Below are positions 829 through 16,625 of a stretch of 32,000 nt of DNA, piece by piece. The stretch is taken from the NCBI RefSeq assembly GCF_029232205.1, contig NZ_CP107255.1, positions 960,001-992,000 on the forward strand, in the 5' to 3' direction. Source of the stretch: Candidatus Saccharimonadota bacterium (lineage in GTDB: Archaea > Nanohalarchaeota > Nanosalinia > Nanosalinales > Nanosalinaceae). Both the position numbers and the translations under genes were made by a program. The notes below the pieces were generated by a model. The model ran no database searches and was not told the origin of the DNA. It saw only the letters and a list, made by a program, of their open reading frames with translations. The first letter of the stretch is position 1; every line of letters begins with the position of its first letter.

Positions 829-867
829 GAGTTGTTATCACTATTGAGTAACAGGTGCGTTGTTTTC

Positions 868-3800
868 ATGAAAACAAGACTAAACAAAACACTGATATTC
901 GCAATTTTTGCCCTGCTGGCAATTTCAACAGCAACAGCTACAGTTTCAAGAGTTGAAATCGATCCTCTGGCATCTTACTACGATCAAGGAACTTCTATTA
1001 CCGTTACAGGCGAGGTCTATGGTACAAGCATAGACAAAGTTACGCTGCAGAGAGAAACCAGCTATGGAGGGTCCACAACAGAAGGAACCGATAGCAACCT
1101 AGGATACTGTGACTCCGGATGTAAAGTAGAGATCCCATATACTTTTGAGGAGACCGGCAGTCAGACACTTTACCTGAGAGCTTTCTCTGGAGATCAGCAG
1201 ACAGACAAGGAAAGCTGGAACACGGAGAAAGTTACAGTAGTTCAGCCAGACGATGAAACCAAGAGCTTCGATCTGAGAAACGTTGGAGCATCAAAATACA
1301 GGCTTGATAGAGACCAGTCTACAACACTGAACGCAGAAGTTGAGAACACAGGAGATGTAGGTTCAAGCGTTCTTATGACCTGGTACGCTGAAAGAAACAA
1401 TAACGAAATAGAGCTGGCTAGCAAGTACAGATACATTTCGCCAGGAGACACAAAGTCTTTCGAGACCGACAGAATTTCATGGAACAATCTGGAAAGAAAA
1501 GGCCTGAACCAGGATAGAAACTACGACCTGATAGGCAAGATGAGAGTAGATAACACAGTAAAAGAGACAGAAACTGCTCCAAACAGTCTAAGAATTAATT
1601 CTGAAGATACAGAGGCCTCTCTAACGGTTAATGTTGAGGACACAGATGGAGATTCGCTGAGCTATTCGCAAGTCTCTGTAGATGGAACAGTCAAAAACAC
1701 AGGAAGAGATGGCAGCACCACATTCAGCCTTGAGAGCGGAGGCTACGAGGTTACCGCCAGCAAGAATAATTACATTAGCGAGGATAGAGGAATCTACCTG
1801 GCTCCTGGAGAGGACGAAACAATAACCATCCAGCTTGACAGAGAAAGAGAACAGGCCAGACTCACAGTACATACAGGAGAAATAAACAGAGACGGGCCTA
1901 CAGACGTAATAGTGCATGTTGACGGACAAAGCAGGAGTACAGGCGACGACGATAGAGTAACTTTCAGGCTTGATCCTGATACTTACACAGTCTCGGCTTC
2001 AGCAAATGGAGAGTATGCTGCAAAGGACGTCACATTGAGTAATGGAGAAAGAGAGACTATCCATCTAGGCCTTCCGAGAGATGGCGGTGATGGAGACGAT
2101 GATGCAAGACTGAATATCAGGACGCGCGATCAGGATGGAGACAGGTTGCGCTATGTTGATGTCTCAGTAGATGGCAGAACCGTTAACACAGGAAGTTCGA
2201 GTAGCGCAAGCTTCAGTCTTGAGAGCGGAGGCTACGAGGTTACCGCCAGCAAGTCAGGATATAGAGATGCTTCAAAGGGCGTATATCTAGCGCCTGGAGA
2301 AGAACAGACAGAAACACTGTACCTTGAGAGAAGGAGCTCAGATAGAGAGGATTGCGATCTTTCAGTCTCAAGAGTAGATATCTCCGACAATACTATTGCT
2401 AAAGGAGAGTCTACAGACGTTAGACTGACAATTGATTCGGGAGATGTCGAGCAAGACTTCAGAGTACTCATAGAGACAGAAGAAGAAACCTATTATGACA
2501 AGAGAATTACTGTAGATGGAGAGAGAACAATCAAGAAAACTATCTCCCCGGAAAGCCCTGTGAAAGTTCATACAAGAACAGAGGCCGTCGGAGCTCCTTG
2601 TGGTTACGAGGAGTGGACAAGCAGTGGAGAAATCCTTGTAGCAGATATTTACGATGACAAAGACCGCTACGACCTCACAGTTGATGTAGAGGATGAAGAT
2701 GGAGACAACATCGAGAACGCAGAAGTAAGAGTTACCAACGGCGAGGAACAGGAAGACGATACAAACAGCAATGGAAGGGCCTACTTCAGCCTTGAAAACG
2801 GAAACTACGACTTAGAAGTGTCCAAAAATGGTTACGAAGACTTTGAGAAAAGTTTCAGCATCAACAACGCAGACAGAAGAATAGACGTGACTCTTGTAGA
2901 TGAAGACGACGATGACAGCGATGATGGAGAAGGAGAGTTCACTGCAAGAGTAATCGATCAGGATCACGACAGACTTGAAGACGCAAGAGTAAGAGTTGAA
3001 GGCCTTGACAGCAGTTACAGAAGAACTCAGTGGACTGACGACGATGGAGAGACAACATTCGATCTTGATGAAGGAGACTACGAGGTAACGGCCTACAAGC
3101 CAGGATACAGTTCACAGACTAGAGATATCGAGATTGATGAAGGAGATGACTTCACTAGAGGTTTCCAGCTGTTCAAAGATGAGAACCTGGAAATCAGCAA
3201 CGTCAACTATCCTGACAGCGTCTGCAGAGGAGCAAGCATGTCAGTATCATTCACAGTCAGAAACACTGGAAACTCGAGAGAAGTAGTCGATATCAGCGGT
3301 TCAGGCCTTGGATCAGACCCAAGCGGCAGATCCATAGTGCTTGACGCTGGAAAATCCAGAAGAGCATCTGTAATGTTCACAGGTGTGGAGGGAAGTGGAT
3401 CAGAAAGCTTTACAGTCGATGCGTACTCCAATGGGGAGACAGTATCGGCTACTAGAACAGTGAACGTCCAGAGCTGTGGAGTAAGCAACTTTGGACAGGC
3501 CAGAGATATATCCATGACTTTGAACCCTGACAGAACTCTTTCAGGTCAGCCAGTACAGGTTAAGGGATATGTCGACGGTGGAACAGGCCGTCAGGAAGTA
3601 GAGATCAATGTTGACGGTGAGAGAGTTGCGAGAGTAAGCACTCAGCCTGATGGATACTACCAGACATACATCAGAGTAAGTCAGGTAGGAACTCACTCTG
3701 TTTCAGCAGAGGCCGACGGCATCAGTGCGACAAGAGATCTTGAGGTGCTGCCTACAGTTTCAGCAACAATGATTAACCCTCCAAGACAGGTATTTGAGGG

Positions 3801-4374
3801 AGAAGAGTTCGAACTGTGTGCAGAGATCAGTTCGCAGATTACTCCAAGAGTTGTGCTGTTGAGAGATGGCGAGGTAATCCAGACAAGAGATGCGGGCGGA
3901 GAAGTATGTTTCACCCCTACAGCATCTGATCCTGGAGAGCACGAGTACATGATCCGTGCAGTAACTTACGGCCAGGGAACAGCAGCAACTGCAAAAGTCA
4001 ACGTGCTTGAGACAGGGCCGGAGACCACAAGCTTCCCAGAGAACCTGGCAGCTGTAGAATCAGAGTCCGGACTGGTCAAGGCAGAGATCTACAACACTCA
4101 CAACGAGATCAAGAGGTACCATGTCAGCCTTGAAGGCCTTCCAGATGACTGGGTGTCAACTTCGGAGAAGGAAGTAGTACTGACTCAGGGAGAGAGAAAG
4201 ACAGTCTACTTCTATATCATGCCGAAGGATGAAGGCAACTACGGCGGAGATGTAGTGATTGAGTCCGACGGATCTGAAATTTACAGAGAGAATGTAACGA
4301 TCTGGTCCGGTGGAACGACAGAAAAAGCCGATAAAACCTGGTTTAGCAAAATCAAGGGCTTCTGGCCCTTTTAG
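868..4374 (+). CDS. Large secreted multi-domain surface protein (about 1168 aa) with a Sec-type signal peptide, CARDB/NEW3-like and Ig-like beta-sandwich domains, and five PEGA/carboxypeptidase-regulatory-like modules
   Basis: ORF 832..4374. The ATG at 868 gives MKTRLNKTLIFAIFALLAISTATA, a typical signal peptide. NTG-type motifs recur (ENTGDVGSS, VRNTGNSREV). Five modules have the form D-DGD-L...V.V....T...G...F.LE.G.YEVTASK.GY. The C-terminal domain has the pattern L.GLPDDW...E..V.L..GE.KTVYFYI.P. Confidence 0.85.
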   Translation: MKTRLNKTLIFAIFALLAISTATATVSRVEIDPLASYYDQGTSITVTGEVYGTSIDKVTLQRETSYGGSTTEGTDSNLGYCDSGCKVEIPYTFEETGSQTLYLRAFSGDQQTDKESWNTEKVTVVQPDDETKSFDLRNVGASKYRLDRDQSTTLNAEVENTGDVGSSVLMTWYAERNNNEIELASKYRYISPGDTKSFETDRISWNNLERKGLNQDRNYDLIGKMRVDNTVKETETAPNSLRINSEDTEASLTVNVEDTDGDSLSYSQVSVDGTVKNTGRDGSTTFSLESGGYEVTASKNNYISEDRGIYLAPGEDETITIQLDREREQARLTVHTGEINRDGPTDVIVHVDGQSRSTGDDDRVTFRLDPDTYTVSASANGEYAAKDVTLSNGERETIHLGLPRDGGDGDDDARLNIRTRDQDGDRLRYVDVSVDGRTVNTGSSSSASFSLESGGYEVTASKSGYRDASKGVYLAPGEEQTETLYLERRSSDREDCDLSVSRVDISDNTIAKGESTDVRLTIDSGDVEQDFRVLIETEEETYYDKRITVDGERTIKKTISPESPVKVHTRTEAVGAPCGYEEWTSSGEILVADIYDDKDRYDLTVDVEDEDGDNIENAEVRVTNGEEQEDDTNSNGRAYFSLENGNYDLEVSKNGYEDFEKSFSINNADRRIDVTLVDEDDDDSDDGEGEFTARVIDQDHDRLEDARVRVEGLDSSYRRTQWTDDDGETTFDLDEGDYEVTAYKPGYSSQTRDIEIDEGDDFTRGFQLFKDENLEISNVNYPDSVCRGASMSVSFTVRNTGNSREVVDISGSGLGSDPSGRSIVLDAGKSRRASVMFTGVEGSGSESFTVDAYSNGETVSATRTVNVQSCGVSNFGQARDISMTLNPDRTLSGQPVQVKGYVDGGTGRQEVEINVDGERVARVSTQPDGYYQTYIRVSQVGTHSVSAEADGISATRDLEVLPTVSATMINPPRQVFEGEEFELCAEISSQITPRVVLLRDGEVIQTRDAGGEVCFTPTASDPGEHEYMIRAVTYGQGTAATAKVNVLETGPETTSFPENLAAVESESGLVKAEIYNTHNEIKRYHVSLEGLPDDWVSTSEKEVVLTQGERKTVYFYIMPKDEGNYGGDVVIESDGSEIYRENVTIWSGGTTEKADKTWFSKIKGFWPF
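1723..1764 (+). repeat. Copy 1 of a 42-nt near-identical island (1 mismatch) inside diverged protein-domain repeats
   Basis: ttcagCcttgagagcggaggctacgaggttaccgccagcaag, encoding FSLESGGYEVTASK. Confidence 0.9.
2212..2253 (+). repeat. Copy 2 of the 42-nt near-identical island
   Basis: ttcagTcttgagagcggaggctacgaggttaccgccagcaag. The flanking codons of the two modules differ at many synonymous and non-synonymous sites. Confidence 0.9.
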
Positions 4375-4375
4375 A

Positions 4376-4381
4376 TTTTTT
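4376..4381 (+). terminator. Oligo-T tract (T6) directly after the stop codon, a candidate archaeal terminator
   Basis: tag-attttttatt immediately 3' of the stop at 4372-4374. Confidence 0.45.
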
Positions 4382-4422
4382 ATTAGTACTTAGTCGTTAG
4401 TTTCTTTTGTTACTACCGACTA

Positions 4423-4432
4423 ATATATAAAA
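4423..4432 (+). promoter_or_regulatory. TATA-like element (ATATATAAAA), followed by an AGGTGA Shine-Dalgarno at 4455-4460
   Basis: AT-rich box about 40 nt upstream of the ATG at 4469. AGGTGA lies 8 nt upstream of that ATG. Confidence 0.4.
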
Positions 4433-4468
4433 TTTAAACCGAGGTGTTATTAACAGGTGACACTTTCA

Positions 4469-6202
4469 ATGCGAAGTCTTGGAAAAATACTATTTGCAAC
4501 CCTACTAATTTTAACATCATTAACAACAGTGGCCGCTAGCCCGGCTGATTTGACAATTTTCCCAAAGGAGGCAACTGCTCCAATAGACAGTTATGCTTCC
4601 TATCAGGTAGAGATTGAGAACACTGGTCCTGTGAAGGATCATTACAGTATTCTGACCAAGACTTCTGAAGTCACAGCTCAGCCTTCAAGTTTCTATCTTG
4701 ACTCAGGAGAGACCAAGACAATCTATGTTTGGTACGATCCCGAGGTCACCAAGGATGCCGGAAGATATTCTTTCGACGTAACTGCTCAGTCCCGTGCAAC
4801 CAACAAACAGTATTCTGTAACAGGTATAGCTAATGTTGTCAAGGAGCACGAAGTTGAACTGAGAATTGCAGATTCCAAGACTGTTTGTAGAGGAGAGAAC
4901 GCAAACTACCAGGTAGAAGTCGAAAACACAGGAATTCAGCCTGAAACATTTGAAATCACCACAGATTACGGACAGCTTTCAAGAAGCCAGGTTACACTGG
5001 AAGAAGGAGAGACACAGACAATTACACTGACTGCAAACTCCGAAGAAGCAGTTGAACAATCTTTCAACGTAGTTGCAGCGTCTACCACAAGCTACGCACA
5101 GCAGATTGAAAGAGTCAACTTCAAGTCCGAAACCTGCTACGGCTCATCAGTATCTATTACTCCTGAAAACCAGGAAGTAGCAGCATTCAACACAGCAACA
5201 TACGATATCACAGTAATGAACCAGGGAACCAAGACCGACACATTCAACATTCAGGCAAGCGAAGGAGAACTCTCCAACTCAGCGGTAAGAGTAAACGGAG
5301 AATCAAGCCAGACAGTCACACTATCAGTAACCCCTGAAGAGCTAGGAGAAAAAACAATTACGGTAACAGCATCAGGAGCAAGCACAGCTGAGAGGACAGC
5401 AAACCTCAACGTCGTCAACGGAAACGACGTAGAAGTAGCATTCAACCAGGCAAGCAAGAACGTCTGTGAAGACAGCAGATTCACCTACGAAGCAGAAATA
5501 ACAAACACAGGTGCAGCAACAGACACATACGATCTCTCCACAACACAGGGAGACGTGTCAACAAACTCAGTTGAACTAGCCCCAGAGGAATCAACAACAG
5601 TAGACATCTCATTTAACGCAACAGACTACTCGGAAGGAGCACAGGAAAGCTTCACAATGACAGCTTCCTCAACAACATTCGATGAACCTTCCAAATCAGT
5701 AACAGGAGACTTCAAAGTCCACAACTGCTGGGACCTCAGCATGAACGTAGTACCAGAAGTCAAGAGCGCAGGAGAGAACTCAAGCACAGTCTACGAAATC
5801 AGCCTGAACAACACAGGAACACAGGAGAACACATACAGACTGACATACGAAGGCCCAGCCTGGATCGACATCAAACCAGAATCAGTCACAGTACCAGCTG
5901 GACAATCAGAAACAGCCTACATCTACGCAAGCATCCCATTCCAGAAGAAGGGAGAAGTACAGATCACAGCAACAGCAGTAGGAAATCAGGTACAGGAATC
6001 AGAGACAGTCAAACTCCTCATAGGAAAAGACATTGAGGACGCAATCAAGAGCGATCAGGGAGGAGACAGCCTAACAGGATCCTTCGCAAACAGTGCATCC
6101 AACCTGGCCAACTCAATCCAGCAATCAGACTCGCTAGTCAAGCTACTAGTATCACTAGTAGTATCAGCAGCAATCGTAGCATTCATCCTCTACAGAGGAT
6201 GA
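4469..6202 (+). CDS. Secreted, C-terminally membrane-anchored surface protein with about five tandem NEW3/CARDB-like beta-sandwich domains. Candidate envelope or S-layer-like protein.
   Basis: ORF 4457..6202 has a GTG start, but the ATG at 4469 with an AGGTGA SD is more likely. Signal peptide MRSLGKILFATLLILTSLTTVAA. Recurring motifs: EIENTGPVKDHY, VENTGIQPETFEI, VMNQGTKTDTFNI, ITNTGAATDTYDL, LNNTGTQENTYRL. C-terminal TM LVKLLVSLVVSAAIVAFILYRG. Confidence 0.85.
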   Translation: MRSLGKILFATLLILTSLTTVAASPADLTIFPKEATAPIDSYASYQVEIENTGPVKDHYSILTKTSEVTAQPSSFYLDSGETKTIYVWYDPEVTKDAGRYSFDVTAQSRATNKQYSVTGIANVVKEHEVELRIADSKTVCRGENANYQVEVENTGIQPETFEITTDYGQLSRSQVTLEEGETQTITLTANSEEAVEQSFNVVAASTTSYAQQIERVNFKSETCYGSSVSITPENQEVAAFNTATYDITVMNQGTKTDTFNIQASEGELSNSAVRVNGESSQTVTLSVTPEELGEKTITVTASGASTAERTANLNVVNGNDVEVAFNQASKNVCEDSRFTYEAEITNTGAATDTYDLSTTQGDVSTNSVELAPEESTTVDISFNATDYSEGAQESFTMTASSTTFDEPSKSVTGDFKVHNCWDLSMNVVPEVKSAGENSSTVYEISLNNTGTQENTYRLTYEGPAWIDIKPESVTVPAGQSETAYIYASIPFQKKGEVQITATAVGNQVQESETVKLLIGKDIEDAIKSDQGGDSLTGSFANSASNLANSIQQSDSLVKLLVSLVVSAAIVAFILYRG

Positions 6203-6207
6203 TCTCC

Positions 6208-6213
6208 TTTTTT
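6208..6213 (+). terminator. Oligo-T tract (T6) after the stop codon
   Basis: tga-tctcc-tttttt-ccc, 5 nt after the stop at 6200-6202. Confidence 0.45.
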
Positions 6214-6280
6214 CCCTCATATTCTCTTTTCATTTACTCAATCTACCAAGAATTTTTCCCTCTAAATCCCAAATCTACCA

Positions 6281-6301
6281 GAAATCTGCCAACCAGATTT
6301 C
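6281..6301. other. Perfect 8-bp inverted repeat with a 5-nt loop in the convergent spacer
   Basis: gaaatctg-ccaac-cagatttc. It is preceded by the direct repeat atctaccaagaa / atctaccagaa. Confidence 0.6.
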
Positions 6302-6536
6302 AAATGGGCCACTGCAAGAAACAATAACCATGCCAAATTCTCAGTTCTCTATCCCTCACCATCATACTAACTGCACTCAGCAGCAGCTATCATAGAATCA
6401 TGCTATTGATCAGGAGATCAGCAGAATATTTTCAGAAGAGGCCTTCTCAGAGAGTGATTTAGTGAAATAACATGTCTAGAATGTCAGATTATATAGAGGT
6501 TATAGAAATAGAAAAGTAGGGAAAATGTGTAGGCCT

Positions 6537-7493
6537 TTATGGGCCTGTTTTGAGTGTGATCTGTGTGTTGTCCTGTAGCCTGTATCCGTAGTCTGCTGTG
6601 ACTGTGATTGTTGCTGTCTTGCTGCCTTCGCTTGTGGATACGTAGTTGGAAGTCATGTCGATACAGGTTGATGGGTTGCTTCCGATGAGTTCTTTCTCTA
6701 CTGTTGTTGACTTGTCTGCATCGGCTCCGAATCCTAGGAAGCTGCTTGATGTCTCAACTGTGAGGTTGATTGTGTTTGTGATATCGTCGCTCACTCCTCT
6801 GTATGCCGCGCCGTTTACCTTGGATTCTTCATACAGGAATGGAGTTCCTGAACCTGAGTTCTCAATTGTTATACATAGCGGCTGTGTCTTGCTGGATCCT
6901 CCGCTTTCTGCTGTGAAGAGTACTGGCGAGCTGGCCTGTACTCCCATCTGAACTGGGCCTCCCGTGTTGTCGATTGATGGCGTTGATCTTGTTGGCTGGC
7001 CTTCTACGGAGTTGGTGTTTACCATTTTCATCTGTGTTACGGCCTGTGTCTGATACTTGTAGAACAGGTTGGCGCTGAAGTCGTATGGGATTGGGACTTC
7101 ATTGTTCTTGTTTGGTGCAGTTACCTGCCACTGGATTGTGCGTGTTAGCGCATTCTGTCCTGCATCAGGGTCTGGGCCTCTGAGAGTTTCGAATGCATCC
7201 TTCCACTGGCCTCCTGATACGCTCCAGAGTCCGCTGTCGCTTCCGAATTCTGGGTTCGTTAGCTTGGCCTGGACGTTTTCTGCGTCAACTCCTCCCTTGT
7301 TTTTGATATTCATTTGTAGGGTGGCTGGCTGTCCGCCGGATAGAGTTGCAGGTGTGGCCTGATAGCTTTCTATCTGGACACCATCCGTCTGGCTTATACT
7401 TACTGAGGTATTTTGAGAATTGTCAGTACAACCTGAAACCACTACAATCATGGCTAGGAGTACTAGGCCGAACTTACGGTCTGGAGTATTCAT
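6537..7493 (-). CDS. Exported lipobox protein, paralog 3 of 3 (318 aa), two beta-rich domains, unknown function
   Basis: N-terminus MNTPDRKFGLVLLAMIVVVSGC (lipobox-like VSGC) followed by a polar linker. The start ATG overlaps the upstream stop (TAATG). It shares its architecture with the two upstream genes. Confidence 0.8.
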   Translation of the reverse strand: MNTPDRKFGLVLLAMIVVVSGCTDNSQNTSVSISQTDGVQIESYQATPATLSGGQPATLQMNIKNKGGVDAENVQAKLTNPEFGSDSGLWSVSGGQWKDAFETLRGPDPDAGQNALTRTIQWQVTAPNKNNEVPIPYDFSANLFYKYQTQAVTQMKMVNTNSVEGQPTRSTPSIDNTGGPVQMGVQASSPVLFTAESGGSSKTQPLCITIENSGSGTPFLYEESKVNGAAYRGVSDDITNTINLTVETSSSFLGFGADADKSTTVEKELIGSNPSTCIDMTSNYVSTSEGSKTATITVTADYGYRLQDNTQITLKTGP

Positions 7494-8311
7494 TAGTTAT
7501 TCACGATGTTTATGTTGAGTTTTGGATCTTTCGCGTATTTATAATATGTGGAGAAATAGATGTTTCTCGTCGTTGTTTCGTCTCTATCGACGTCTGCAAG
7601 GCAGGAGAATTCAAGTTTCTCTCCAACTACAGGTTCATCTTCGCTTGGACAGTCTTCGAATACCTGTGGACTTTTAGGGAAGTATTCAAATCTATATGGA
7701 GAAGTTACTCGCCCATCTCCAATAGATTCGACAGAGAAATCTACCTGTCTTCCATTAAGCGTGGACGGGGCCTCAACAGCCATGGTTCCTCTGGCCTCTC
7801 CATTTGAGAAAGTCTTGGTAACTTTTCTGGTACTGTTAATCTGCTGGAATGGCTTGAAAGTTAGTTTAAGAGGATCTACAATCGTTAGGCTAGAATTGTA
7901 CTGCAGGTAAAAGTTCATGGACTGTGGCTTCTGCTCAACATCTAACTGAACGCTATCAGGCACCCTTACATTCCATGTGCATTCCATTTCAGGCTTAATA
8001 TCCTGTTGAGCTGGCTTTATTGTATCAGGACTGCAGGATCTATCTGTTACCTCCAGCAAACCAGTGTTGATGAATGTCTTATCTGTTATAGTTACGTCCT
8101 CTGTATGGTAGTTCTTCAAAGTTACAAGGATTGTTGCCTGTTGACCAGGCCTTAGAGTATTGTCGCTTACACGAAGTTCTGTAACTTCAAGGCCTTTTCC
8201 AGGAGCCTGAGTTTCTGTACCAGGTTCTGTAGTATTTCCTCCGTTTAGATCTGCGCAGCCTGATACTGCTACAGTTAATGCTATCAGAATTGCTATTCTA
8301 GTTGTTTCCAC
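7493..8311 (-). CDS. Exported lipobox protein, paralog 2 of 3 (272 aa), unknown function
   Basis: GTG start at 8311, preceded by GAGGTGAA (8317-8324). N-terminus METTRIAILIALTVAVSGC. Overlaps the upstream gene by 14 nt. Confidence 0.8.
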   Translation of the reverse strand: METTRIAILIALTVAVSGCADLNGGNTTEPGTETQAPGKGLEVTELRVSDNTLRPGQQATILVTLKNYHTEDVTITDKTFINTGLLEVTDRSCSPDTIKPAQQDIKPEMECTWNVRVPDSVQLDVEQKPQSMNFYLQYNSSLTIVDPLKLTFKPFQQINSTRKVTKTFSNGEARGTMAVEAPSTLNGRQVDFSVESIGDGRVTSPYRFEYFPKSPQVFEDCPSEDEPVVGEKLEFSCLADVDRDETTTRNIYFSTYYKYAKDPKLNINIVNN

Positions 8312-9206
8312 TGTACTTCACCTCTACTGGGATGCTCCCCGCATCTTTCGTGTATTGATAATCTGCTTCTACAGATAGCTCCTCTCTAACACTTGGCGAG
8401 TCTATCGAGCCACCGTAGCTGATATCGCAGCGGATTACCTGCGAATCTCCTCTATCCATTATGAGTCTTTCAGGAATATTGCATGTATCCATCTGGATGT
8501 TGAGGCCTTCTGAACTGCTGAATTCCGGCGTAGTTACTGATACCAGGCCTCGGTATGGAGATTCTTCTGTGCTTCTTTTGCTTAGTCTGGTAAGCATTTC
8601 TATGTTGTCTCCTTCAATGAAGACTGGTGCTCCTTGATCGCTGCTGCTTCCTATTGTTTCTATCTGGATTGAAAGCGGTCCTTTGGATGTTTTTGATGAT
8701 AGTGCTGGATCTCCTCCGGATTCTATTCCTTTCTTTATCTGTATTTCTCTGTATGCTGAGACCGAGTAATTGAATGGAGCTTGGAACTGCAGGTTGCATG
8801 TCTGGCCCATCAGCGGGACATCTCCGTATTGCTTTAGTTCCCAGTCGAATTCGGCCTCCCATCCCGGTTTCAAGAAGTAGCTATCTTTATTTGCTTCAGT
8901 TTTTGAGCTTCTTCCATCGTAGTCCTGCATCTTGAATATATCTGTACAGTAGTTTGTGAGTATTTCTTCTCCGTCTTCCCCTGCCATGAGCGTCCCATTC
9001 ATTTCTCCAGTATTTTTCACACCTATTGATACTCGGACAGTTGAATCAGGATATATTGAGCCAGAACTTGGCTGTACCTCAGGGCCCGTGATCGTCAGTG
9101 CTCTGCCATTTTCTTTCTGTGTTTGCTGGTTGCCTCCTGGACCGATGCATCCTGAGGCGAGAACTGCTAAAAACAAGATACTTATACCTAGCTCCCGGGT
9201 TTCCAT
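8298..9206 (-). CDS. Exported lipobox protein, paralog 1 of 3 (302 aa), unknown function
   Basis: ATG at 9206. N-terminus METRELGISILFLAVLASGC. Motif VSIGVKNTGEMNG (CARDB-like). C-terminal ADYQYTKD resembles ADYGYRL and STYYKYAKD in the paralogs. Confidence 0.8.
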   Translation of the reverse strand: METRELGISILFLAVLASGCIGPGGNQQTQKENGRALTITGPEVQPSSGSIYPDSTVRVSIGVKNTGEMNGTLMAGEDGEEILTNYCTDIFKMQDYDGRSSKTEANKDSYFLKPGWEAEFDWELKQYGDVPLMGQTCNLQFQAPFNYSVSAYREIQIKKGIESGGDPALSSKTSKGPLSIQIETIGSSSDQGAPVFIEGDNIEMLTRLSKRSTEESPYRGLVSVTTPEFSSSEGLNIQMDTCNIPERLIMDRGDSQVIRCDISYGGSIDSPSVREELSVEADYQYTKDAGSIPVEVKYSGNN

Positions 9207-9216
9207 ACATCATACT

Positions 9217-10017
9217 ATGTTAGGCCAGATTAAAAGGTTTTTAGTGGAGAAGTTCTGGATCCCGGTAGCTGACGAATCTGTCTACTACAATCCATACAAT
9301 ACTACTATCTATGCTCTGCTTTTTGGATTGGCCGCTCTTTATCTGGTCTATCCATTTTCGAAAAAGCTGGGTATTACATTTGACAGGGATTTTTTCAAGG
9401 GGATAGCACCTTATGCTTTTCTTGGCGGTGCAGTTAGATCATTGAAAGATATCAACGCAGTCAACAGCTTCTTGTTGGAAACACCGTTTATCTACATTGT
9501 TCTCTTCGTATTTACTGTATCTGCTATCAAGTTTTCGCAGATTTTATCGGACAGAACGGACTACTCTATGGAGAATATTCTGGCAGTAACAGGCCTTATT
9601 CCTCTTGCTGTAAGCCTTTCTTTCTACAGTATCAGTAATTTTGCTGCTGTGGGCCTTTTCCTTTCACTTGTTTTGACGTGGTCTTTAGCAGGTTATGCTG
9701 TTTTACAGTTGTTGAGGCCTGATCTATTGAATTATTCTTTCGTGGTTCCTGTTGCTGCCCATTTTTACGATGCTTCTACGACGGTAACTGCTCTGAGCTT
9801 TGGTGGGCGGGAGAAACATGTTTTAGGCCAGTTCTTCATTGATGTGTTTGGGCCTTATGGAATGTTTTTGATGAAGGGTCTGATTATAGTTCCTGTTGTT
9901 TACTATATTGTTGAGAATATGGAGGGAGAGGAAAGGAATTATTACTTGTTCTTGATTGCTTTGTTGGGTATTGCGATAGGCACCAGAAATATTTTGTCTA
10001 CGGTTGCTCTCACCTAA
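9217..10017 (+). CDS. Polytopic integral membrane protein (266 aa), resembles the archaeal DUF63 family
   Basis: ORF 8956..10017, but the first 87 codons overlap the divergent gene. The ATG at 9217 gives MLGQIKRFLVEKFW. There are about 6-7 hydrophobic helices. The DUF63 assignment is from memory of the family's size and character and was not searched. Confidence 0.7.
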   Translation: MLGQIKRFLVEKFWIPVADESVYYNPYNTTIYALLFGLAALYLVYPFSKKLGITFDRDFFKGIAPYAFLGGAVRSLKDINAVNSFLLETPFIYIVLFVFTVSAIKFSQILSDRTDYSMENILAVTGLIPLAVSLSFYSISNFAAVGLFLSLVLTWSLAGYAVLQLLRPDLLNYSFVVPVAAHFYDASTTVTALSFGGREKHVLGQFFIDVFGPYGMFLMKGLIIVPVVYYIVENMEGEERNYYLFLIALLGIAIGTRNILSTVALT

Positions 10018-12269
10018 CCGTCGAAGCATCTGAAGGAGCCGTCGTCAACTATAACTACTCCTCCTTCTTCTCCACTGCACGAGTTCATTGCTTCTTTGAA
10101 GTTTTCTTTAGGAGATGAGCCGAAGGCGTTCATTATTTGTTGTGCGAGACCAGGCCTTTCAGTACAGTCTTGGGCCATTGCTGTAAACATTAGCGTGTCT
10201 GCTCTTGGATTGCTGTCATCCCAGTATTGCATGTAGTCTTCTAGAGTAGCTGAGTAGCTGAAGTCGAATGCGCGCGTACAGAGTATTCCTTCTACCTCTC
10301 TGACCTCCACATCTGAGGAGCCGAATCTCTGGCTTGTGACAAGTCCTGCTCCTATTGATGGTTCGCGGTTAGCATCGTTCATTAATTCTCTTTCGCTGTC
10401 GGAAAGTCCTATGGCTGTATCTGTAACCTCTGGCGATACAGTGATGAAGGCCCCGCCATTACTGCGGGAGTAGTCATTGACTATTGATTCCCAGGTGTAA
10501 GCTGTCTCTCCTTCTTCTATATCTGCGTCAACTTCTTCGTGGTTGTAGAGTTCTACGTTTCTCCAGTCTTGTCCTACGGGTGCACCTCCTTTTCTAACGT
10601 CGCAGCCATTGTTTGCGGCCACACGTAGATCAGAATCACATTTGCTGATGAGATGATCATTATCTACATCTTCGTAGGATCCTATCTTGTCCTTTGGAAC
10701 CAGGAATGGGCAGTTCTTTCTCTGATTACCTCCACAGTTCCTGTTCTGTACTCTGAAGTTGTCAGCGGACTGGCCTAATCTTACAGTATAGTTTGCATCA
10801 ATACTCATTCTGAGTGTTTCTCCTGAAGGACTGATTTCCTCAGGATTTTCCAGAACCATAGCACAGATAGCCTGAGTAGGCCTCTGGCCGTAATCATACC
10901 AGCCCTGATTGGTCATGTACTCTTTCTGTTCCTCTGATAGAGTGTAGAGATTTTCCTCACCGGAGACTTTCTGAAGGCCTCTGCAGTTAGCGCTACCGAG
11001 TTCATCAGCCCATCTCGAGTTCTCTACATCCATTGTTGCGGAAGAATCCCGAATTACTAGTTCTTCTGGATGTACTTTATAGTCAATTCCTCTCTGTGCA
11101 GTTTCAAAGCCTACTTTTACAAGGAATACGTTAGGCCTTACATTATTGCCTTCATTTACGTAGGTAGCCGGATTCTGGACATTAATGAAAGTTTTTACGG
11201 GAGTATCTGCAGTTTTAGATTTCTTGAAGTCTGGTCTACCTTCCAGATTATCTACAGCCATTGCATCGAAAGATATCTGTGACTGAGACGAGTATTCATA
11301 CTTTACCTGCATTTCTACGTGTCTGCTCATGTCTAGAGCTGGCTGCATGAGCCCACAGCTACTGATATTCAGTGCGTTCAAGCTCCCTAGTGGCGTAGCA
11401 AATCCTCCAGGATAAATTGTTCCTTCCTCATCAGTGTATGAGCTTGCATACTGGCCGTTTAGAGGTTTCCAGCCAGTGGAGCAAAGAGTTTGTGCGCCTT
11501 CAAGGCCTGCAAAGCCTTCTGCTTTCTGAACCATTACCCTGTACTGGGCATTTTTTGCCTTAATTCCCTTTAGACCATGTCTCGGATTGAATACTGAGAA
11601 AGATGCCGGGAAAACATACCCTGGCCTCCTTCCAGCTACGTTTATTGTATCTCCACCGTTTACTTCGAATTCTTCTATCTGTAGTTTGTATTCCTGGCCT
11701 TCTACCTCCGAGCCAGGCCTTCTTGTATTGTTATATCTCCATCTCTGCATACAGGCTGCATCACCGAAGCACTGGGCCTGCTGAGCTGCCTGTCTTACTG
11801 CTAGAATTTCGTCTTCAAGGTCGAGGCCGATAACCTGGTTGCCTACTGCATTGCTTGCTAGGGAGCCATATCCTGTTGTGAATACTGCTGCTATCAAGAC
11901 AAATGCGCCAGCTATTTTCAGGATACCACCTAGACTATGGCCTCCTTGCTGTTGTTGCTGTCTTCGGCCTCCATCAGTCATAAGTCTATTATTTGATGCA
12001 CTGGTTGAAGTACCTTGGGAGTACAAGCCCAGTTTATCGTCTAATCCCAGAAGAGTGAATAGTTCTAGATCAAACCAAGGTATGGCGAGCAGCAGTATTG
12101 TGAAAATTCTTTTAGGCCATGATAGTTGTCCAAAGTCGATCTTTTTTACAGGAAGTTTTCCTACAAGAGGCAGCGTATCTATTCCAAAAACTCCGAACCA
12201 GTCAAAGTCTATAGGCGTAGGAGCTAAGTATGCAAGAGCGCTCAGTGCTTTATCCTTTGCCCAGCTCAT
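10014..12269 (-). CDS. Large Cys-rich membrane-anchored protein (751 aa), unknown function. Two N-terminal hydrophobic helices flank a poly-Gln stretch, followed by an extracytoplasmic region of about 610 aa.
   Basis: The ATG at 12269 overlaps the upstream stop (ATGA). Hydrophobic helices IFTILLLAIPWFDLELFTLLGL and ILKIAGAFVLIAAVFTTGYG. More than 15 Cys, often paired (CFGDAAC, CGGNQRKNC, CDSDLRVAANNGC). I could not find a catalytic motif. Confidence 0.8.
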   Translation of the reverse strand: MSWAKDKALSALAYLAPTPIDFDWFGVFGIDTLPLVGKLPVKKIDFGQLSWPKRIFTILLLAIPWFDLELFTLLGLDDKLGLYSQGTSTSASNNRLMTDGGRRQQQQQGGHSLGGILKIAGAFVLIAAVFTTGYGSLASNAVGNQVIGLDLEDEILAVRQAAQQAQCFGDAACMQRWRYNNTRRPGSEVEGQEYKLQIEEFEVNGGDTINVAGRRPGYVFPASFSVFNPRHGLKGIKAKNAQYRVMVQKAEGFAGLEGAQTLCSTGWKPLNGQYASSYTDEEGTIYPGGFATPLGSLNALNISSCGLMQPALDMSRHVEMQVKYEYSSQSQISFDAMAVDNLEGRPDFKKSKTADTPVKTFINVQNPATYVNEGNNVRPNVFLVKVGFETAQRGIDYKVHPEELVIRDSSATMDVENSRWADELGSANCRGLQKVSGEENLYTLSEEQKEYMTNQGWYDYGQRPTQAICAMVLENPEEISPSGETLRMSIDANYTVRLGQSADNFRVQNRNCGGNQRKNCPFLVPKDKIGSYEDVDNDHLISKCDSDLRVAANNGCDVRKGGAPVGQDWRNVELYNHEEVDADIEEGETAYTWESIVNDYSRSNGGAFITVSPEVTDTAIGLSDSERELMNDANREPSIGAGLVTSQRFGSSDVEVREVEGILCTRAFDFSYSATLEDYMQYWDDSNPRADTLMFTAMAQDCTERPGLAQQIMNAFGSSPKENFKEAMNSCSGEEGGVVIVDDGSFRCFDG

Positions 12270-13393
12270 TCTTGAGGCCTCTGTGAGAGAACATTCAGAT
12301 TTCTGATTATATAGGACCCGTTACTTGATATTCTAAGAGTGTTTTCTTCCTGAAGTGTTTCCTCTGGTATCTTGACTACTGAAAATCCTCTTGGAGTTAT
12401 TGTCTCTGAGAACGAGTTTACCGTGACCTGTACCGGGTTCTGTGATGGCATCAGGTTTACGTAGTTGAAGTTTACGTACTCACTTGTTTCTTCTCTGTTT
12501 GCGAAGGATAGGCTGCTCTGATTCATGTCAAAGCTGGCTGTTGCTGTTCCTGGTTCGATTGTTCCGAAGTATCTGACTGTTAGATCTATGTTTTCCAAGT
12601 CGTATCTTGCGTTGCCTTCAGTTTCAAATCTTACCGTGTTGTACCCTGTGTTGATCTGCTCTCTGTCGATTGAGATTGACTGTGTTGATCTTGAGATTCT
12701 CTGTGAGAACACCTGTTCATCGTTAACAAATACTTCCAGAGGTGCTGTTCTTGTTGATGAGTCGATTGGTAAGGTGAAGCTCAGGTTAGCTGCTGCAAAC
12801 TCCTCTATCTCATACTGGTATACTCTGAATGATTTTTCATAATCGTTGAACTTTCGGTCGTTAACCGTTACCTCTACATCCTCTATCGAGTATTCTGTTG
12901 ATGAGAAAAGGCCTCCTTTCGTTGTTCCTATTACAATTTTGTTTTCTCCCGGCTTGAGTACGTCTGAAGAAATATTGATTGATGGAGTGCCTGTTGTGAC
13001 AAGTTTTTCCTTGAATATTTCGTTTCCGTTAACTTTTACGTACATGGCGCCTTTTCCATCTTTACCCAGTACTTCAAATTCGATGTGGCCTGTTGTTGGT
13101 GCTGTGGCCTGATAGTTGAGTTCTATTTTCTGGCCGCCGATTAGTTTATTCTTTACTGTTGCTTCTTGTGCTGTGTAGGCCTGGATATCTCCTCTTCCTT
13201 CTCCTACGGAGAATGTTCCGAAGTTCACTGTTCTTATGTCCTGTGTGGCTTCTCCTATCTGTCCGAAGTCGTTCTGGTAGAATGTTATGTCGGATGTTGC
13301 CTGGTTGTTGAAGTTGTAGTTTTGTGAGGCAACCCAGAACAGGCCGAATACTGCTAGGCCTGCTACTAGTATGACAGCGAACTCGTTATCCAT
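12266..13393 (-). CDS. Signal-anchored protein (375 aa) with three tandem modules of about 80 aa (jelly-roll/CBM-like pattern), unknown function
   Basis: N-terminus MDNEFAVILVAGLAVFGLFWVASQ. Repeated pattern: MYVKVNGNEIF...LKPGENKIVI...YSIEDVEVTV, then LEVFVNDEQVF...INTGYNTVRF...YDLENIDLTV, then VQVTVNSFSE...QEENTLRI...YIIRNLNVL. Confidence 0.8.
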   Translation of the reverse strand: MDNEFAVILVAGLAVFGLFWVASQNYNFNNQATSDITFYQNDFGQIGEATQDIRTVNFGTFSVGEGRGDIQAYTAQEATVKNKLIGGQKIELNYQATAPTTGHIEFEVLGKDGKGAMYVKVNGNEIFKEKLVTTGTPSINISSDVLKPGENKIVIGTTKGGLFSSTEYSIEDVEVTVNDRKFNDYEKSFRVYQYEIEEFAAANLSFTLPIDSSTRTAPLEVFVNDEQVFSQRISRSTQSISIDREQINTGYNTVRFETEGNARYDLENIDLTVRYFGTIEPGTATASFDMNQSSLSFANREETSEYVNFNYVNLMPSQNPVQVTVNSFSETITPRGFSVVKIPEETLQEENTLRISSNGSYIIRNLNVLSQRPQE

Positions 13394-13445
13394 GCTTAAA
13401 GGTGGTTTTTGCAGGTTTTTATTTGTAGGTTGTCCTTTTGAGTGT
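13394..13445. promoter_or_regulatory. 52-bp divergent intergenic region with a T/A-rich box (GTTTTTATTTG), probably carrying promoters for both pelota and the minus-strand envelope genes
   Basis: This is the only non-coding DNA between the divergent starts at 13393 and 13446. The AT-rich box sits about 25-32 nt from each start. Confidence 0.35.
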
Positions 13446-14432
13446 ATGAAGCTGTTAAAAACCGATCGTGGAGAGGGTTACGTTAAGATTCGTATTGAGA
13501 ATCAGGATGATCTCTGGTATTTGAAGGATATTATTGCGAAGGGTGATGAGGTCCGGGCCTTGACTCAGAGGACGAAGTTGGATGGCCGTGAGAAGAAGAC
13601 CTGTACTTTGACACTGGAGACTGAGAAGACTGAGTATCAGGAGAACCGTCTTCGTGTTACCGGGGAGATTACTGAGGGTGCGGATGATATTGAGCTTGGT
13701 TTTCATACTTTCAACTTGGAGCCTGAGCAGGAGTTTGAGATGTGGAAGGATTTCACGAATGAGGAATGGGAAAGGTTAGAGGAGGCCGAGGAGAAGCGTA
13801 GTTACAAGGTGTTTTTCTGTCTTGTTGAGAAAGGTAGTGCTGATTTCTATATTGTTGAGGAGTCCGGTATCAAGGATCTTTCGAACGTTGAGGAGAATAT
13901 TCCTGGCAAGATGTATGCTTCAGATAAGAATTCTGACAACTTTTTCAATCAGGTTAAGGAGGTTGTTGAACGGTCTGCGGACGATATGGATTATATTATT
14001 CTATGTGGGCCTGGCAACCAGAAGAATAAGTTGAAGAACATGCTTTCGGATGATACTGTGTCGAAGACTATGTTGCAGGATACTTCTGTGACAGGTTTTA
14101 CAGGCCTTAATGAGGCTATTAAGAGAGGTGCTCTGAAGAAGGTTGTTGAGACTTCACGTATTGCTGAGGAGTCAGAGGTTATGGAGGAGTTTCTTGATCG
14201 ATTAAATAATGATGAGAGAGTTAGTTACGGCGATCCTGTTGAGGATCTCATTGAGCAGGGTGCTGTTGAGACATTGATCATTACTGCCGAGAAGAACAGG
14301 AAGAATCCTGAGCTGGCCAAGACTGTTGAGAGAATGGGTGGCGATGTTAATGTTGTGCATACCGATCACGAGGCCGGCGAGAGACTGGACAACTTTGGAG
14401 GCCTTGGCGCCCTGCTCCGCTACCAGGTTTGA
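13446..14432 (+). CDS. pelA: Pelota (Dom34-like) mRNA surveillance / ribosome rescue factor
   Basis: MKLLKTDRGEGYVKIRIENQDDLWYLKDII.GDEV matches the pelota N-terminal domain. The length (328 aa) and the eRF1-like C-terminal part also fit. The ATG at 13446 is preferred over the ORF-track start at 13371. Confidence 0.9.
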   Translation: MKLLKTDRGEGYVKIRIENQDDLWYLKDIIAKGDEVRALTQRTKLDGREKKTCTLTLETEKTEYQENRLRVTGEITEGADDIELGFHTFNLEPEQEFEMWKDFTNEEWERLEEAEEKRSYKVFFCLVEKGSADFYIVEESGIKDLSNVEENIPGKMYASDKNSDNFFNQVKEVVERSADDMDYIILCGPGNQKNKLKNMLSDDTVSKTMLQDTSVTGFTGLNEAIKRGALKKVVETSRIAEESEVMEEFLDRLNNDERVSYGDPVEDLIEQGAVETLIITAEKNRKNPELAKTVERMGGDVNVVHTDHEAGERLDNFGGLGALLRYQV

Positions 14433-15560
14433 TCAATCTTGAGGCCTTGAAGCAAGCGTTACCGGTACTTCTACTTCTTCCCCATCACGGATTACAGTTA
14501 TCGTAACTTCATCTCCAGGCTCTGTTTCTTCAGCCAGGTATGTCAGGATATCGCTGATTCCAGTCATTTCTGTACCATTTATAGCTGTTATTACATCGCC
14601 TCCTAGCGTGTATGTTATTCCATTGATTGTTTCGTTTCTTGTTCCTGCCTGAAGGCCTGCTTTTTCTGCTGGACTGTCTTCTACTACGTCCATGACCAGG
14701 AATCCTGTTGAAGTGCTGAGATTCATGGCCTCTGAGATGTCGGAGTTGACGTCAAGGCCTGATACTCCTATCCATGAGTGCTGCCTTTCCCCATTTTCGA
14801 TCAGGTCCGGTACTACTCTCTTGACTGTGTTTGATGGGATTGCGAACCCTACTCCATTAAATGTTCCTGTGGAGGACTGAATGGCTGTGTTTACTCCTAT
14901 TACTTTTCCGTGTATGTTGATTAGTGGGCCTCCTGAGTTTCCAGGGTTGATTGCTGCGTCTGTCTGTATTACGTTTGGTATTGAGAAGCCTCCTTCTGTT
15001 CTGATATTTCTGTTTTTGGCCGAGACTATTCCTGCAGTCATTGTTCCGCTGAGGCCGAATGGGTTTCCTATTGCTACTGCGGTTTGGCCTCTCATTACCT
15101 CTGTGGAGTTTGCTAGTGGAAGCGGTTTGAGGTTTTGTTTATTGACTTTGAGTACTGCAAGGTCGTTGTATACGTCGGATCCTACTACTTCGGCCTTTTT
15201 CCTTGTTCCATCGGAGAATATTACATCGATGCTGTCTGCTCCATCTATTACGTGCTGGTTTGTGACAATATATCCTTCTTTGTTGTATACGAATCCTGAT
15301 CCCTGCGATACCTGATTTCCTATTGCGTCGATGGATACTGTTGATCCTTCTACCTGTTGGTATAGGCTGACGAGTGCTTTTTCGTCTTTTGTTCCGTTTA
15401 TGTATACTACCTGTTGCTGGTCCTGTAGGTTGGATACTTTGTGTTCGAGGCTGGAGACTCTGTCGTCCATTGTCTGGTATACTGTGAAGCCTCCTAGGAC
15501 TGATCCGAAAAGTAGTACTGCTAGAACGCCGAATAATTCGATCTTTCTTTCAGTATCCAT
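14433..15560 (-). CDS. htrA: HtrA/DegP-family serine protease with an N-terminal membrane anchor and a C-terminal PDZ domain
   Basis: Trypsin-fold motifs TNQHVI (His), DLAVLKV (Asp) and GNSGGPL (Ser). PDZ-like stretch GFLVMDVVEDSPAEKAGLQ. ATG at 15560 (MDTERKIELFGVLAVLLFGSVLGG). Confidence 0.9.
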   Translation of the reverse strand: MDTERKIELFGVLAVLLFGSVLGGFTVYQTMDDRVSSLEHKVSNLQDQQQVVYINGTKDEKALVSLYQQVEGSTVSIDAIGNQVSQGSGFVYNKEGYIVTNQHVIDGADSIDVIFSDGTRKKAEVVGSDVYNDLAVLKVNKQNLKPLPLANSTEVMRGQTAVAIGNPFGLSGTMTAGIVSAKNRNIRTEGGFSIPNVIQTDAAINPGNSGGPLINIHGKVIGVNTAIQSSTGTFNGVGFAIPSNTVKRVVPDLIENGERQHSWIGVSGLDVNSDISEAMNLSTSTGFLVMDVVEDSPAEKAGLQAGTRNETINGITYTLGGDVITAINGTEMTGISDILTYLAEETEPGDEVTITVIRDGEEVEVPVTLASRPQD

Positions 15561-15612
15561 CACGTGGCAATTGTTTGTTGAGAGTTTTATAGCTCCCGAA
15601 CATATTTTCTGT

Positions 15613-16047
15613 ATGGTAGAGACCACCAGGCACTTCACCGCTACATGCTTTGTAGTGAATGATGACAGAGTGCTGCTTCATTTCCACAAGAAACTGGATA
15701 AATGGCTACCGGTAGGAGGTCATATCGATAGAGACGAGCTTCCACATCAGGCAGCTGAAAGAGAGGTAAAAGAAGAGTCAGATCTAAATGTTAGTATTGA
15801 GGGCCGCGAAAGTCTTTCTGAAGAGGTTGATGAGCTTCCAAGGCCTGACAAAGTTTTGCTACAGGATATTAATGATCATCACCAGCATATTGACTCTGTT
15901 TTCTATGTAGAATCTGAGGAATATGATTTTGAGGCCGAAGAAGGTATCGAGGAGATGGCCTGGTTCAGTGAGGAAGAGGTTAGGGCTCTTGACGCCAGCG
16001 AGGAGATTAAAACCCATAGTTTAGAGGCTCTGGAGAAGTTCAGGTGA
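15613..16047 (+). CDS. Nudix hydrolase (144 aa)
   Basis: Nudix box GGHIDRDELPHQAAEREVKEESDL. The ATG at 15613 is preferred, because the longer ORF-track start overlaps htrA. Confidence 0.85.
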   Translation: MVETTRHFTATCFVVNDDRVLLHFHKKLDKWLPVGGHIDRDELPHQAAEREVKEESDLNVSIEGRESLSEEVDELPRPDKVLLQDINDHHQHIDSVFYVESEEYDFEAEEGIEEMAWFSEEEVRALDASEEIKTHSLEALEKFR

Positions 16048-16431: not shown

Positions 16432-16438
16432 TTGAGTT

Positions 16439-16524: not shown

Positions 16525-16625
16525 ATAACTGAAAAATTCAGTTAGCAGATTCTGATGGTTCCGAAGAACCATCTCTTATAGAGAATTTTGATATAGAAGT
16601 TTTAAATGAAGAAGGCCTGATGGAG

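Follow-up and report, generated by a model that had tools for sequence, protein, structure and literature searches.

A lineage-conserved gene block for predicted envelope proteins and an AliA/AliB-family enzyme in Nanohaloarchaeota

Introduction

What do five closely packed genes for exported proteins of no recognisable function contribute to an archaeon that depends on a host cell? The question is raised by positions 6537 to 13393 of a 32,000-nt stretch of contig NZ_CP107255.1 (positions 960,001 to 992,000; the whole stretch is referred to here as the window), in which the five genes, named A, B, L1, L2 and L3, share the minus strand with a sixth gene placed among them on the opposite strand. 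In a homolog search, protein B matched a hypothetical protein of Candidatus Nanohalovita haloferacivicina at 100% identity. This nanohaloarchaeon is in cultivation as an ectosymbiont of Haloferax, and the guess of an initial annotation, made from the letters of the window, that the DNA belongs to a nanohaloarchaeal-type ectosymbiont was thus borne out. Nanohaloarchaeal cells have one lipid bilayer and an S-layer; they depend on host contact, and all that they obtain comes to them by way of their envelope.

The initial annotation proposed that the five proteins form a surface complex for host attachment or exchange. The comparative analysis presented here does not support this proposal, though it does not refute it either, and leads to a different and still tentative reading, held at a probability of roughly 45%: that the block encodes a constitutive, lineage-specific envelope complex or scaffold that relies on AliA-type lipidation and is apparently specific to Nanohaloarchaeota.

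Results

On the minus strand, gene A (12266-13393, an open reading frame (ORF) of 375 aa) is followed by gene B (10014-12269, an ORF of 751 aa for a membrane-anchored protein) and, further along, by three genes for lipobox proteins: L1 (8298-9206; 302 aa, LASGC, Cys20), L2 (7493-8311; 272 aa, AVSGC, Cys19, with a GTG start) and L3 (6537-7493; 318 aa, VVSGC, Cys22). Between B and L1, on the plus strand, lies a gene of the aliA/aliB family (PF01889, formerly DUF63; 9217-10017) that encodes a 266-aa polytopic membrane protein. The five minus-strand genes and the three overlaps reported for them at the outset were all found in place. Read directly from the sequence, A and B meet in an ATGA overlap (...CAAGAATGAGCTGG / CAAGAATGAGC), the GTG start of L2 sits in ...AGTGGAAACAACTAG, 14 nt inside the end of L1, and the stop codon of L2 and the start codon of L3 overlap as TAATG. 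The aliA-family gene is joined to both of its neighbours: its start (9217) and the start codon of L1 (9206) stand head to head, 10 nt apart, and at its other end it converges with B, the two stop codons overlapping.

Conservation of this layout was assessed in 18 further loci, of which 16 were obtained by scanning species-representative genomes and 2 by look-up, together with the complete genome of Candidatus Nanohalococcus occultus (locus L019; comparison loci carry three-digit numbers), using a blastp map across all loci and the called genes of the Ca. Nanohalococcus locus. Order was counted only in loci with enough flank, and in all of these (16 nanohaloarchaeal loci besides the window) the genes run HtrA, pelota (opposite strand), A, B, the membrane gene (opposite strand), L1, L2, L3. 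The six ORFs represent real genes and not chance reading frames. Wherever a nanohaloarchaeal locus has enough flank, it carries orthologs of all six in unchanged order and strand, with near-zero spacers between them. The spacing from A to B lies between -4 and +9 nt in 15 of the 16 comparison loci. Of the 17 sequences having both L2 and L3 (the window included), 16 show a spacing of -1 or -4 nt between the two, and in most loci L1 overlaps L2, which often starts with GTG. Where a PF01889 gene is present, 4-13 nt separate its start from that of L1 in 14 of 16 loci, and such a gene fills the slot between B and L1 in 16 of 17 comparison loci. The exception is locus L002, a nanohaloarchaeal metagenome-assembled genome, where a DUF5658 membrane protein of 201 aa (E = 1.7e-9) is encoded in the slot (12990-13595, minus strand). 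The stretch from HtrA to L3 is intact even in Ca. Nanohalococcus occultus, whose ribosomal/SecY cluster is found elsewhere (SVXNc_0894, versus SVXNc_1035-1042 for the block). Overall, the idea of a coupled module is strengthened at this level: homologs are co-localised and tightly coupled across the lineage, not scattered over related genomes.

The proteins themselves appear confined to this lineage. Homolog searches returned 86 clusters for A (39-80% identity, lengths of 372-398 aa), 50 for B (31-62% identity) and 33 for L1, and all of the named ones are nanohaloarchaeal; beyond named nanohaloarchaeal and metagenomic matches, these searches found no homologs of A, B or L1. The orthologs are single-copy in the nanohaloarchaeal genomes examined. 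Between the two closest genomes, B and L2 are 60% and 57% identical, respectively, versus 77-86% for their neighbours.

The gene on the opposite strand had been described in the initial annotation as a DUF63-like membrane gene wedged into the set, a description that is now outdated. Its product matches PF01889, for which the current Pfam name is AliA_AliB, over profile positions 1-266 of 269 (E = 1e-40; 141.1 bits versus a cut-off of 25), and orthologs in the same slot match as well. Proteins of arCOG02177/02178 were the first archaeal lipoprotein biogenesis components to be identified, and aliB genes often lie near lipoprotein genes (Hong et al. 2025, Nat Commun, PMC12462473). In Haloferax volcanii, AliA acts as the chief enzyme in the thioether-archaeol lipidation of lipobox proteins and is needed for this modification (Hong et al. 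2026, PMC13631571). Because PF01889 is the AliA/AliB family of lipoprotein lipidation, the gene is expected to work together with the three lipobox genes rather than to interrupt them. The setting resembles aliB neighbourhoods of Halobacteria, where the same enzyme family stands beside genes for lipobox proteins (PMC12462473, PMC13631571). In contrast to Haloferax volcanii and the Halobacteria, the gene for the predicted enzyme here faces a fixed, lineage-specific trio of paralogous lipoprotein genes head to head, at a distance of 4-13 nt in most genomes, and converges with B, and each of the two promoters appears to lie partly in the coding sequence of the other gene. In the pocket of the enzyme, AliA has two conserved Arg where AliB has His; among 17 nanohaloarchaeal sequences from the aliA slot, the residues conserved in at least 88% include H182, D185, E199, K220 and N258 and no Arg, and the gene is assigned here to the AliA/AliB family as a whole.

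Three lipobox proteins had been recognised in the block from the start. With the lipobox defined as [L/V/I] at -3, [A/S/T/V/I] at -2, [G/A/S] at -1 and C at +1, after an N-terminal signal peptide with a hydrophobic core, this is strictly true of L2 and L3 (both VSGC); L1, which reads ASGC with Ala at -3, qualifies only under a broader definition. Every ortholog of L1, L2 and L3 keeps the SGC unchanged after a hydrophobic stretch. Profile-profile comparison with hhalign, which was used to assess paralogy, identified the three as full-length paralogs (probabilities of 98.0% for L1-L2, 99.2% for L1-L3 and 98.8% for L2-L3, with E values of 3e-13 to 5e-20), so that the triplication is older than the radiation of the sampled genomes, in none of which the L1-L2-L3 order is shuffled. 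Conserved cysteines outside the lipobox are even in number, with 4 in L1, 4 in L2 and 2 in L3, all of these invariant, and 12 in B, which fits extracytoplasmic disulfide pairs.

The N-terminal domain of L3 is CARDB-like, in that CARDB (PF07705) matches at E values up to 0.1 were obtained for 9 of 15 L3 orthologs (best 3.8e-5); the L3 of the window itself scored 15.1 bits, under the Pfam cut-off of 22.7. None of 20 L1 orthologs matched CARDB, and L1 gave no Pfam signal at all. The L3 profile found nothing among PDB sequences, and L3 did not align with a neighbouring 581-aa Ig-repeat protein (hhalign probability 1.5%). In four loci, a variable secreted protein of 333-579 aa is encoded after L3 (16376-17863 in L002, 17813-19552 in L017, 17642-18643 in L018 and 17165-18325 in L019), sometimes overlapping the end of L3. 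These proteins were rejected as members of the block, being neither of the L family nor conserved; only those of L002 and L017 are alike (24% identity).

Protein B begins with a variable part (residues 1-150, presumed to be cytoplasmic). Its conserved core (about 150-510) consists of two Cys-stapled beta-sandwiches, after which a linker rich in Cys leads to a highly variable alpha/beta domain at the C-terminus (about 590-751). It was first described as a Cys-rich membrane protein, and this description holds: of its 14 Cys, 12 are conserved in at least 84% of 44 orthologs, and a single strong hydrophobic helix lies at about 111-137. A weaker hydrophobic segment is seen at 55-76, and B is not clearly polytopic as judged from its sequence. 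In the AlphaFold2 model of B (mean predicted local distance difference test score (pLDDT) of 76.6, above 90 at about 320-500), helices including the strong hydrophobic one form the N-terminal part, the beta-sandwiches span about 197-510, the Cys-rich linker is modelled poorly, and an alpha/beta domain closes the chain. The mean frequency of the commonest residue is 0.6-0.66 in the core (151-500), versus 0.33-0.39 in the N-terminal 150 residues and 0.27 in the C-terminal 150, and the length differences among orthologs, which range from 673 to 1048 aa, fall in the variable N- and C-terminal parts. A B profile searched against 1.84 billion representative proteins gave 109 matches, 94 of them below 1e-30 and all B-like. 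Residues 190-386 of B align with residues 33-210 of L3 (hhalign probability 90.5%, E = 1.3e-6), suggesting that the B core probably shares a two-beta-sandwich module with the L family.

The folds of B gave little further indication of function. When AlphaFold2 models were compared with known structures by Foldseek, PDB matches of B were generic beta-sandwiches of integrin-leg or arrestin-like type, with template modelling scores (TM-scores) of at most 0.12, and against the viral structures of BFVD a single match fell under E = 0.001, to a DUF11 protein with a TM-score of 0.08; the B profile found nothing among PDB sequences. Shorter proteins related to the B core were encountered in loci L020-L024. 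These 'mini-B' proteins (P0253, P0255 and P0263; 177-289 aa) combine an N-terminal anchor with B-core motifs (RHGLKGI-like, YDYSSQ-like and TADT), and one of them carries a lipobox-like LIIGC. Two of the mini-B genes were looked up and proved to be single genes at unrelated loci, one next to a rhomboid protease gene and the other, on a contig of 972 kb, close to the gene of an intein-carrying PolD large subunit.

Protein A lacks cysteine; a hydrophobic helix at its N-terminus (residues 3-25) precedes three beta-sandwich modules. The three jelly-roll-like modules noted in the initial annotation were borne out at the domain level by an AlphaFold2 model with a pLDDT of 86.6, which matched tandem arrays of galactose-binding-domain-like folds and carbohydrate-binding modules (CBMs) in the PDB by Foldseek with a probability of 1.0 and E values of 3e-9 to 1e-5. 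The best match was the tandem CBM35 region of a Paenibacillus alpha-1,6-glucosyltransferase (5x7o, E = 3e-9), and others were the C-terminal domains of beta-galactosidases of glycoside hydrolase family 35 (GH35), Cry1 protoxin domains, BcsB of bacterial cellulose synthase, and reelin. Unlike the CBM35, GH35 and BcsB arrays that its modules match in fold, A belongs to no sequence family and has no synthase, hydrolase or transporter partner; no CBM family scored above the cut-off for A in Pfam or NCBIfam. BcsB is a membrane-tethered extracytoplasmic protein, as is proposed for A, with its anchor at the C-terminus versus the N-terminus in A. Four positionally conserved N-x-S/T sequons lend mild support to an extracytoplasmic location of A. 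A is unrelated to the L family (hhalign probability 0.6%).

Possible promoter elements were sought by aligning the 60 nt before each start across loci. A TATA/BRE-like (B recognition element-like) sequence, CTAAAAACCTTTTAAT (complement of 9229-9244), lies 23-38 nt before the L1 ATG and within codons 5-10 of the aliA-family gene, and AAAAnCTTTTAA before L1 is conserved at equal distance from the L1 ATG in 18 loci. These loci include L002, which has no aliA-family gene there, and L008 and L015, in which the assigned start of that gene is 53-71 nt away. In the other direction, a TATA-like CTTATAC (about 9181-9187) falls within the signal-peptide codons of L1, and a TTAAA/TTATA element stands about 30-35 nt before the aliA ATG across loci, so that a region of head-to-head promoter overlap is predicted at 9157-9260. 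At the far end of the block, the divergent 52-nt spacer between A and pelota (13394-13445) holds a single symmetric A/T box, AAATAAAAA (13416-13424), about 22-31 nt from both ATGs and conserved in 20 of 20 sequences aligned upstream of A; it may be one bidirectional TATA element that serves both A and pelota. Although the longest ORF for pelota, from 13371, would run into A, the start that is conserved is the ATG at 13446. We infer from these elements three leaderless units with interlocked promoters, namely A-B, L1-L2-L3 and the aliA-family gene.

Expression of the block can be followed in Ca. Nanohalococcus, in which gene order and annotation identify SVXNc_1040 as the ortholog of A, SVXNc_1039 as B, SVXNc_1038 (annotated 'uncharacterized membrane protein') as the aliA-family gene and SVXNc_1037-1035 as L1-L3. 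Their published values in reads per kilobase per million mapped reads (RPKM) are 1394 for A, 1701 for B, 387 for the aliA-family gene, 762 for L1, 391 for L2 and 1709 for L3. In the same table, most ribosomal proteins range from about 1000 to 5500, and a nearby gene annotated as a 'PKD repeats containing' membrane protein reaches 6058; the source paper terms a gene at 344 'actively expressed'. The orthologs are transcribed at a moderate to fairly high level in Ca. Nanohalococcus.

That no known function can be assigned to the five proteins, as the initial annotation had it, also held after profile and fold-library checks. Pfam and NCBIfam gave nothing above cut-off for A, B, L1, L2 or L3; PHROGs gave one marginal match for A (E = 0.0085) and none for B or L1-L3, and PADLOC gave none. 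No ATPase, pore, transporter or secretion component was found in or beside the block, in line with the earlier remark that ATPase and transporter signatures are lacking. Solute-binding lipoproteins of ABC transporters were rejected as an identity, given that no family match was obtained, that the L-related part of B is a beta-sandwich in its model, and that no locus carries a permease or an ATPase. Type IV pilins and archaellins were likewise rejected. The initial annotation had seen no known pilin signal, and Pilin_N and flagellin profiles indeed have no match in A or B; a weak match occurs in only 1 of 15 L3 orthologs, and the block has no FlaI/FlaJ-type gene. As to an S-layer identity, RPKM values of 391-1709 for the orthologs are moderate compared with 6058 for the nearby PKD-repeat protein gene. 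Ig-like domains of the CARDB/DUF11 type are likewise all-beta and extracytoplasmic; the first domain of L3 is CARDB-like, and the best BFVD match of B is a DUF11 protein. Unlike these, the second domain of the L proteins and the conserved motifs RHGLKGI, YDYSSQS, TADTPV and DY.Y have no described family. No description of the block was found in the nanohaloarchaeal papers searched.

The surroundings of the block combine envelope and housekeeping genes. Upstream, a plus-strand gene for a 1180-aa CarboxypepD_reg/PEGA repeat protein (832-4374), likewise an envelope protein, and one for the 581-aa Ig-like repeat protein (4457-6202; signal peptide, C-terminal transmembrane anchor and S-layer-protein-like architecture) adjoin the block, as they do in most nanohaloarchaeal loci; neither lies within the 21-kb stretch of Ca. 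Nanohalococcus (L019) that was read. The initial annotation put exported proteins of no known function at about one fifth of the window; with the two upstream genes, about 12.5 kb (832-13393) is envelope-coding, compared with the 6.9 kb originally flagged. On the other side, the conserved neighbours, which are not counted as parts of the complex, are pelota (13446-14432, plus) and a PDZ-domain serine protease of the HtrA type that is anchored in the membrane (14433-15638, minus), followed by genes for a Nudix protein, tRNA-Ser, an HD protein, Cbf5, an EMC3/YidC-like insertase and SecY and by the ribosomal-protein supercluster. The tRNA-Ser (GGA; 16438-16525, minus), between the Nudix and HD genes, is the sole RNA gene found in the window by ARAGORN and Rfam. 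A 252-aa ORF at 25-783 (plus) consists of 23% Asp and Glu and has neither a hydrophobic segment nor a Pfam match. Within the ribosomal-protein supercluster, an LD-carboxypeptidase is encoded at 27462-28514 on the minus strand (Peptidase_S66 N- and C-terminal domains, E = 4e-27 and 5e-21), which is odd in an archaeon, as archaea should have no murein. Between 17000 and 32000 the AT skew is -0.3 to -0.6, matching the long minus-strand run of ribosomal-protein and SecY genes and not one giant gene. GC content is even across the window, at 0.41-0.49.

Discussion

From the combined results we infer lipidation of L1-L3, a single five-protein complex, the topology of A, glycan binding by A and a scaffold role, which together would yield the following scheme. 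A and B would be transcribed from the promoter region shared with pelota, L1-L2-L3 from a promoter within the codons of the aliA-family gene, and the latter from a promoter within the signal-peptide codons of L1. The products would be exported by Sec, and the AliA/AliB-family enzyme would put thioether archaeol on Cys20 of L1, Cys19 of L2 and Cys22 of L3, with A and B held in the membrane by their N-terminal helices. L1-L3 and the related core of B would assemble into a hetero-oligomeric, membrane-proximal layer in which each subunit consists of two disulfide-stapled beta-sandwiches, and gene order and translational coupling would fix the subunit ratios. The three lectin-type jelly rolls of A would bind glycan, most plausibly that of the cell's own glycosylated surface layer. 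The complex as a whole would act as a constitutive scaffold or tether from membrane to S-layer, with the hypervariable C-terminal domain of B as its sole outward-facing, lineage-specific part. Such a role has known counterparts in SlaB of the Sulfolobales and in the anchoring of S-layers through SLH domains and secondary cell-wall polymers, in which a membrane-tethered layer holds a glycosylated S-layer. Unlike for these anchors, the anchoring role of the block is hypothetical, and no sequence or fold similarity to them was found.

Several observations weigh against this scheme. Contact among the five proteins is not directly evidenced. The relationship between B and the L family is supported by the single comparison with L3; the alignments of B with L2 and L1 are co-linear but weak (hhalign probabilities of 6.8% and 0.4%). 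The topology of A is uncertain, as an acidic or neutral N-terminal flank and the absence of Cys make a cytoplasmic orientation possible, and its fold matches have low TM-scores (0.14-0.25), the likeness being at the level of domains within a different overall architecture; jelly-roll arrays also occur in proteins that are not lectins, such as Cry protoxin and reelin. The aliA-slot gene is placed at the level of the AliA/AliB family and not of the Arg or His subtype. The TATA-like elements overlap coding sequence, so that their conservation would partly be explained by protein constraint. Additionally, the conserved order also covers the unrelated pelota and HtrA genes, and the linkage may partly reflect inherited gene order rather than functional coupling.

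The proposal of a host-contact apparatus, in which A would bind glycans on the S-layer of the host, and B's variable head would confer host specificity, has several features in its favour: the cluster is restricted to an obligately host-dependent lineage, A has lectin-type folds, the last 150 residues of B form a hypervariable stretch, active transcription of the orthologs is seen in co-culture, and B and L2 diverge faster than their neighbours between the two closest genomes, which would also suit a host- or virus-exposed role. It is mainly the hypervariable domain of B and this faster divergence that keep the proposal alive. It is nevertheless considered unlikely, and a core envelope function is favoured because the block is single-copy, is kept across genera whose cultivated members differ in host, has housekeeping genes as neighbours and appears to draw on one promoter region together with pelota, and has no ATPase, pore, hydrolase or transporter in it, nor a secretion component in or beside it. 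The cultivated members of the lineage live on Haloferax (this organism), Halomicrobium and Halorubrum, yet A remains 39-80% identical and fixed in length. The candidates for host contact in the literature, giant SPEARE-like proteins and LamG/PKD proteins, are strain-specific, which the block is not, and this too argues for a core envelope function. A stronger form of the idea is regarded as improbable. In this form, the block would be the universal core of a nanohaloarchaeal symbiosis machine, with A, L1-L3 and the B core as a lipid- and helix-anchored base presenting the B head to the host; it would bring about the specific adhesion observed microscopically, or even the breaching or bridging of membranes, and its supply would be tied to lipidation through the interlocked promoters of the aliA-family gene and L1.

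Alternatively, there may be no complex, with A, B and L1-L3 being independent envelope proteins that are adjacent by inherited order and convenient co-expression with the aliA-family gene. Synteny in these small genomes does span unrelated genes (pelota, HtrA, Cbf5, SecY), the orthologs of the L1-L3 unit differ about 4-fold in RPKM, and interaction among the products is not evidenced; against this, the start/stop overlaps are kept across the lineage, the ancient paralogs occur in the order L1-L2-L3 in every genome without loss, duplication or shuffling, and the block survives where wider synteny is broken, all of which make independence rather unlikely. Quite improbable is a role in glycan capture, by which the lipoproteins and A would bind poly- or oligosaccharide released by the host for a transporter encoded elsewhere. 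The model for such a role would be SusE and SusF of Bacteroidota, adjacent paralogous surface lipoproteins with an Ig-like N-domain followed by beta-sandwich domains, which work in the context of a bacterial outer membrane with SusC/D and glycoside hydrolases. The block similarly combines tandem paralogous beta-sandwich lipoproteins with a CBM-type jelly-roll protein, and nanohaloarchaea live on sugars and polysaccharides in consortia according to the literature. Unlike SusE/SusF, it has no SusC/D or glycoside-hydrolase partners and no detectable homology: no gene for a transporter, a glycoside hydrolase or sugar metabolism lies within the block or next to it in any locus, neither sequence nor fold searches matched Sus proteins or, at family level, any CBM family, and the block is kept whatever the polysaccharide niche. 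Finally, Cys-rich, membrane-anchored ectodomains without homologs beyond one lineage resemble viral glycoproteins in a general way, which might suggest a domesticated envelope module of a virus or mobile element (spike or fusogen) or an anti-viral surface defence. This highly improbable explanation is already largely refuted, and a viral or cellular fusogen or spike was rejected as an identity: BFVD gave no significant match, its single one below E = 0.001 being to the DUF11 protein noted above, the top 50 PDB matches are generic beta-sandwiches that include no viral fusion protein, PHROGs and PADLOC were silent apart from the marginal match of A, and the block has a fixed chromosomal place among housekeeping genes in all genomes, in a window of uniform GC content.

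Conclusions

The kinds of component found in this block are known, namely lipoproteins, Ig- or CARDB-like sandwiches, jelly-roll lectin folds and AliA/AliB enzymes, whereas no relatives of the A, B and L families have been described. What is new is the interlocked arrangement of the genes for the enzyme and its predicted substrates. The AliA/AliB pathway was discovered only in 2025, and here a DPANN gene for an enzyme of this family is interlocked with the genes of three predicted clients; this physical interlock between the aliA-family gene and L1-L3 suggests co-regulation of enzyme and substrates. The overlapping divergent promoters and the box shared by A and pelota, both predicted, would represent promoter economy in a reduced archaeal genome. 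Overall, five orthologous surface proteins that are apparently lineage-wide and unique to the lineage provide concrete targets for studying the envelope biology of an obligate symbiont.

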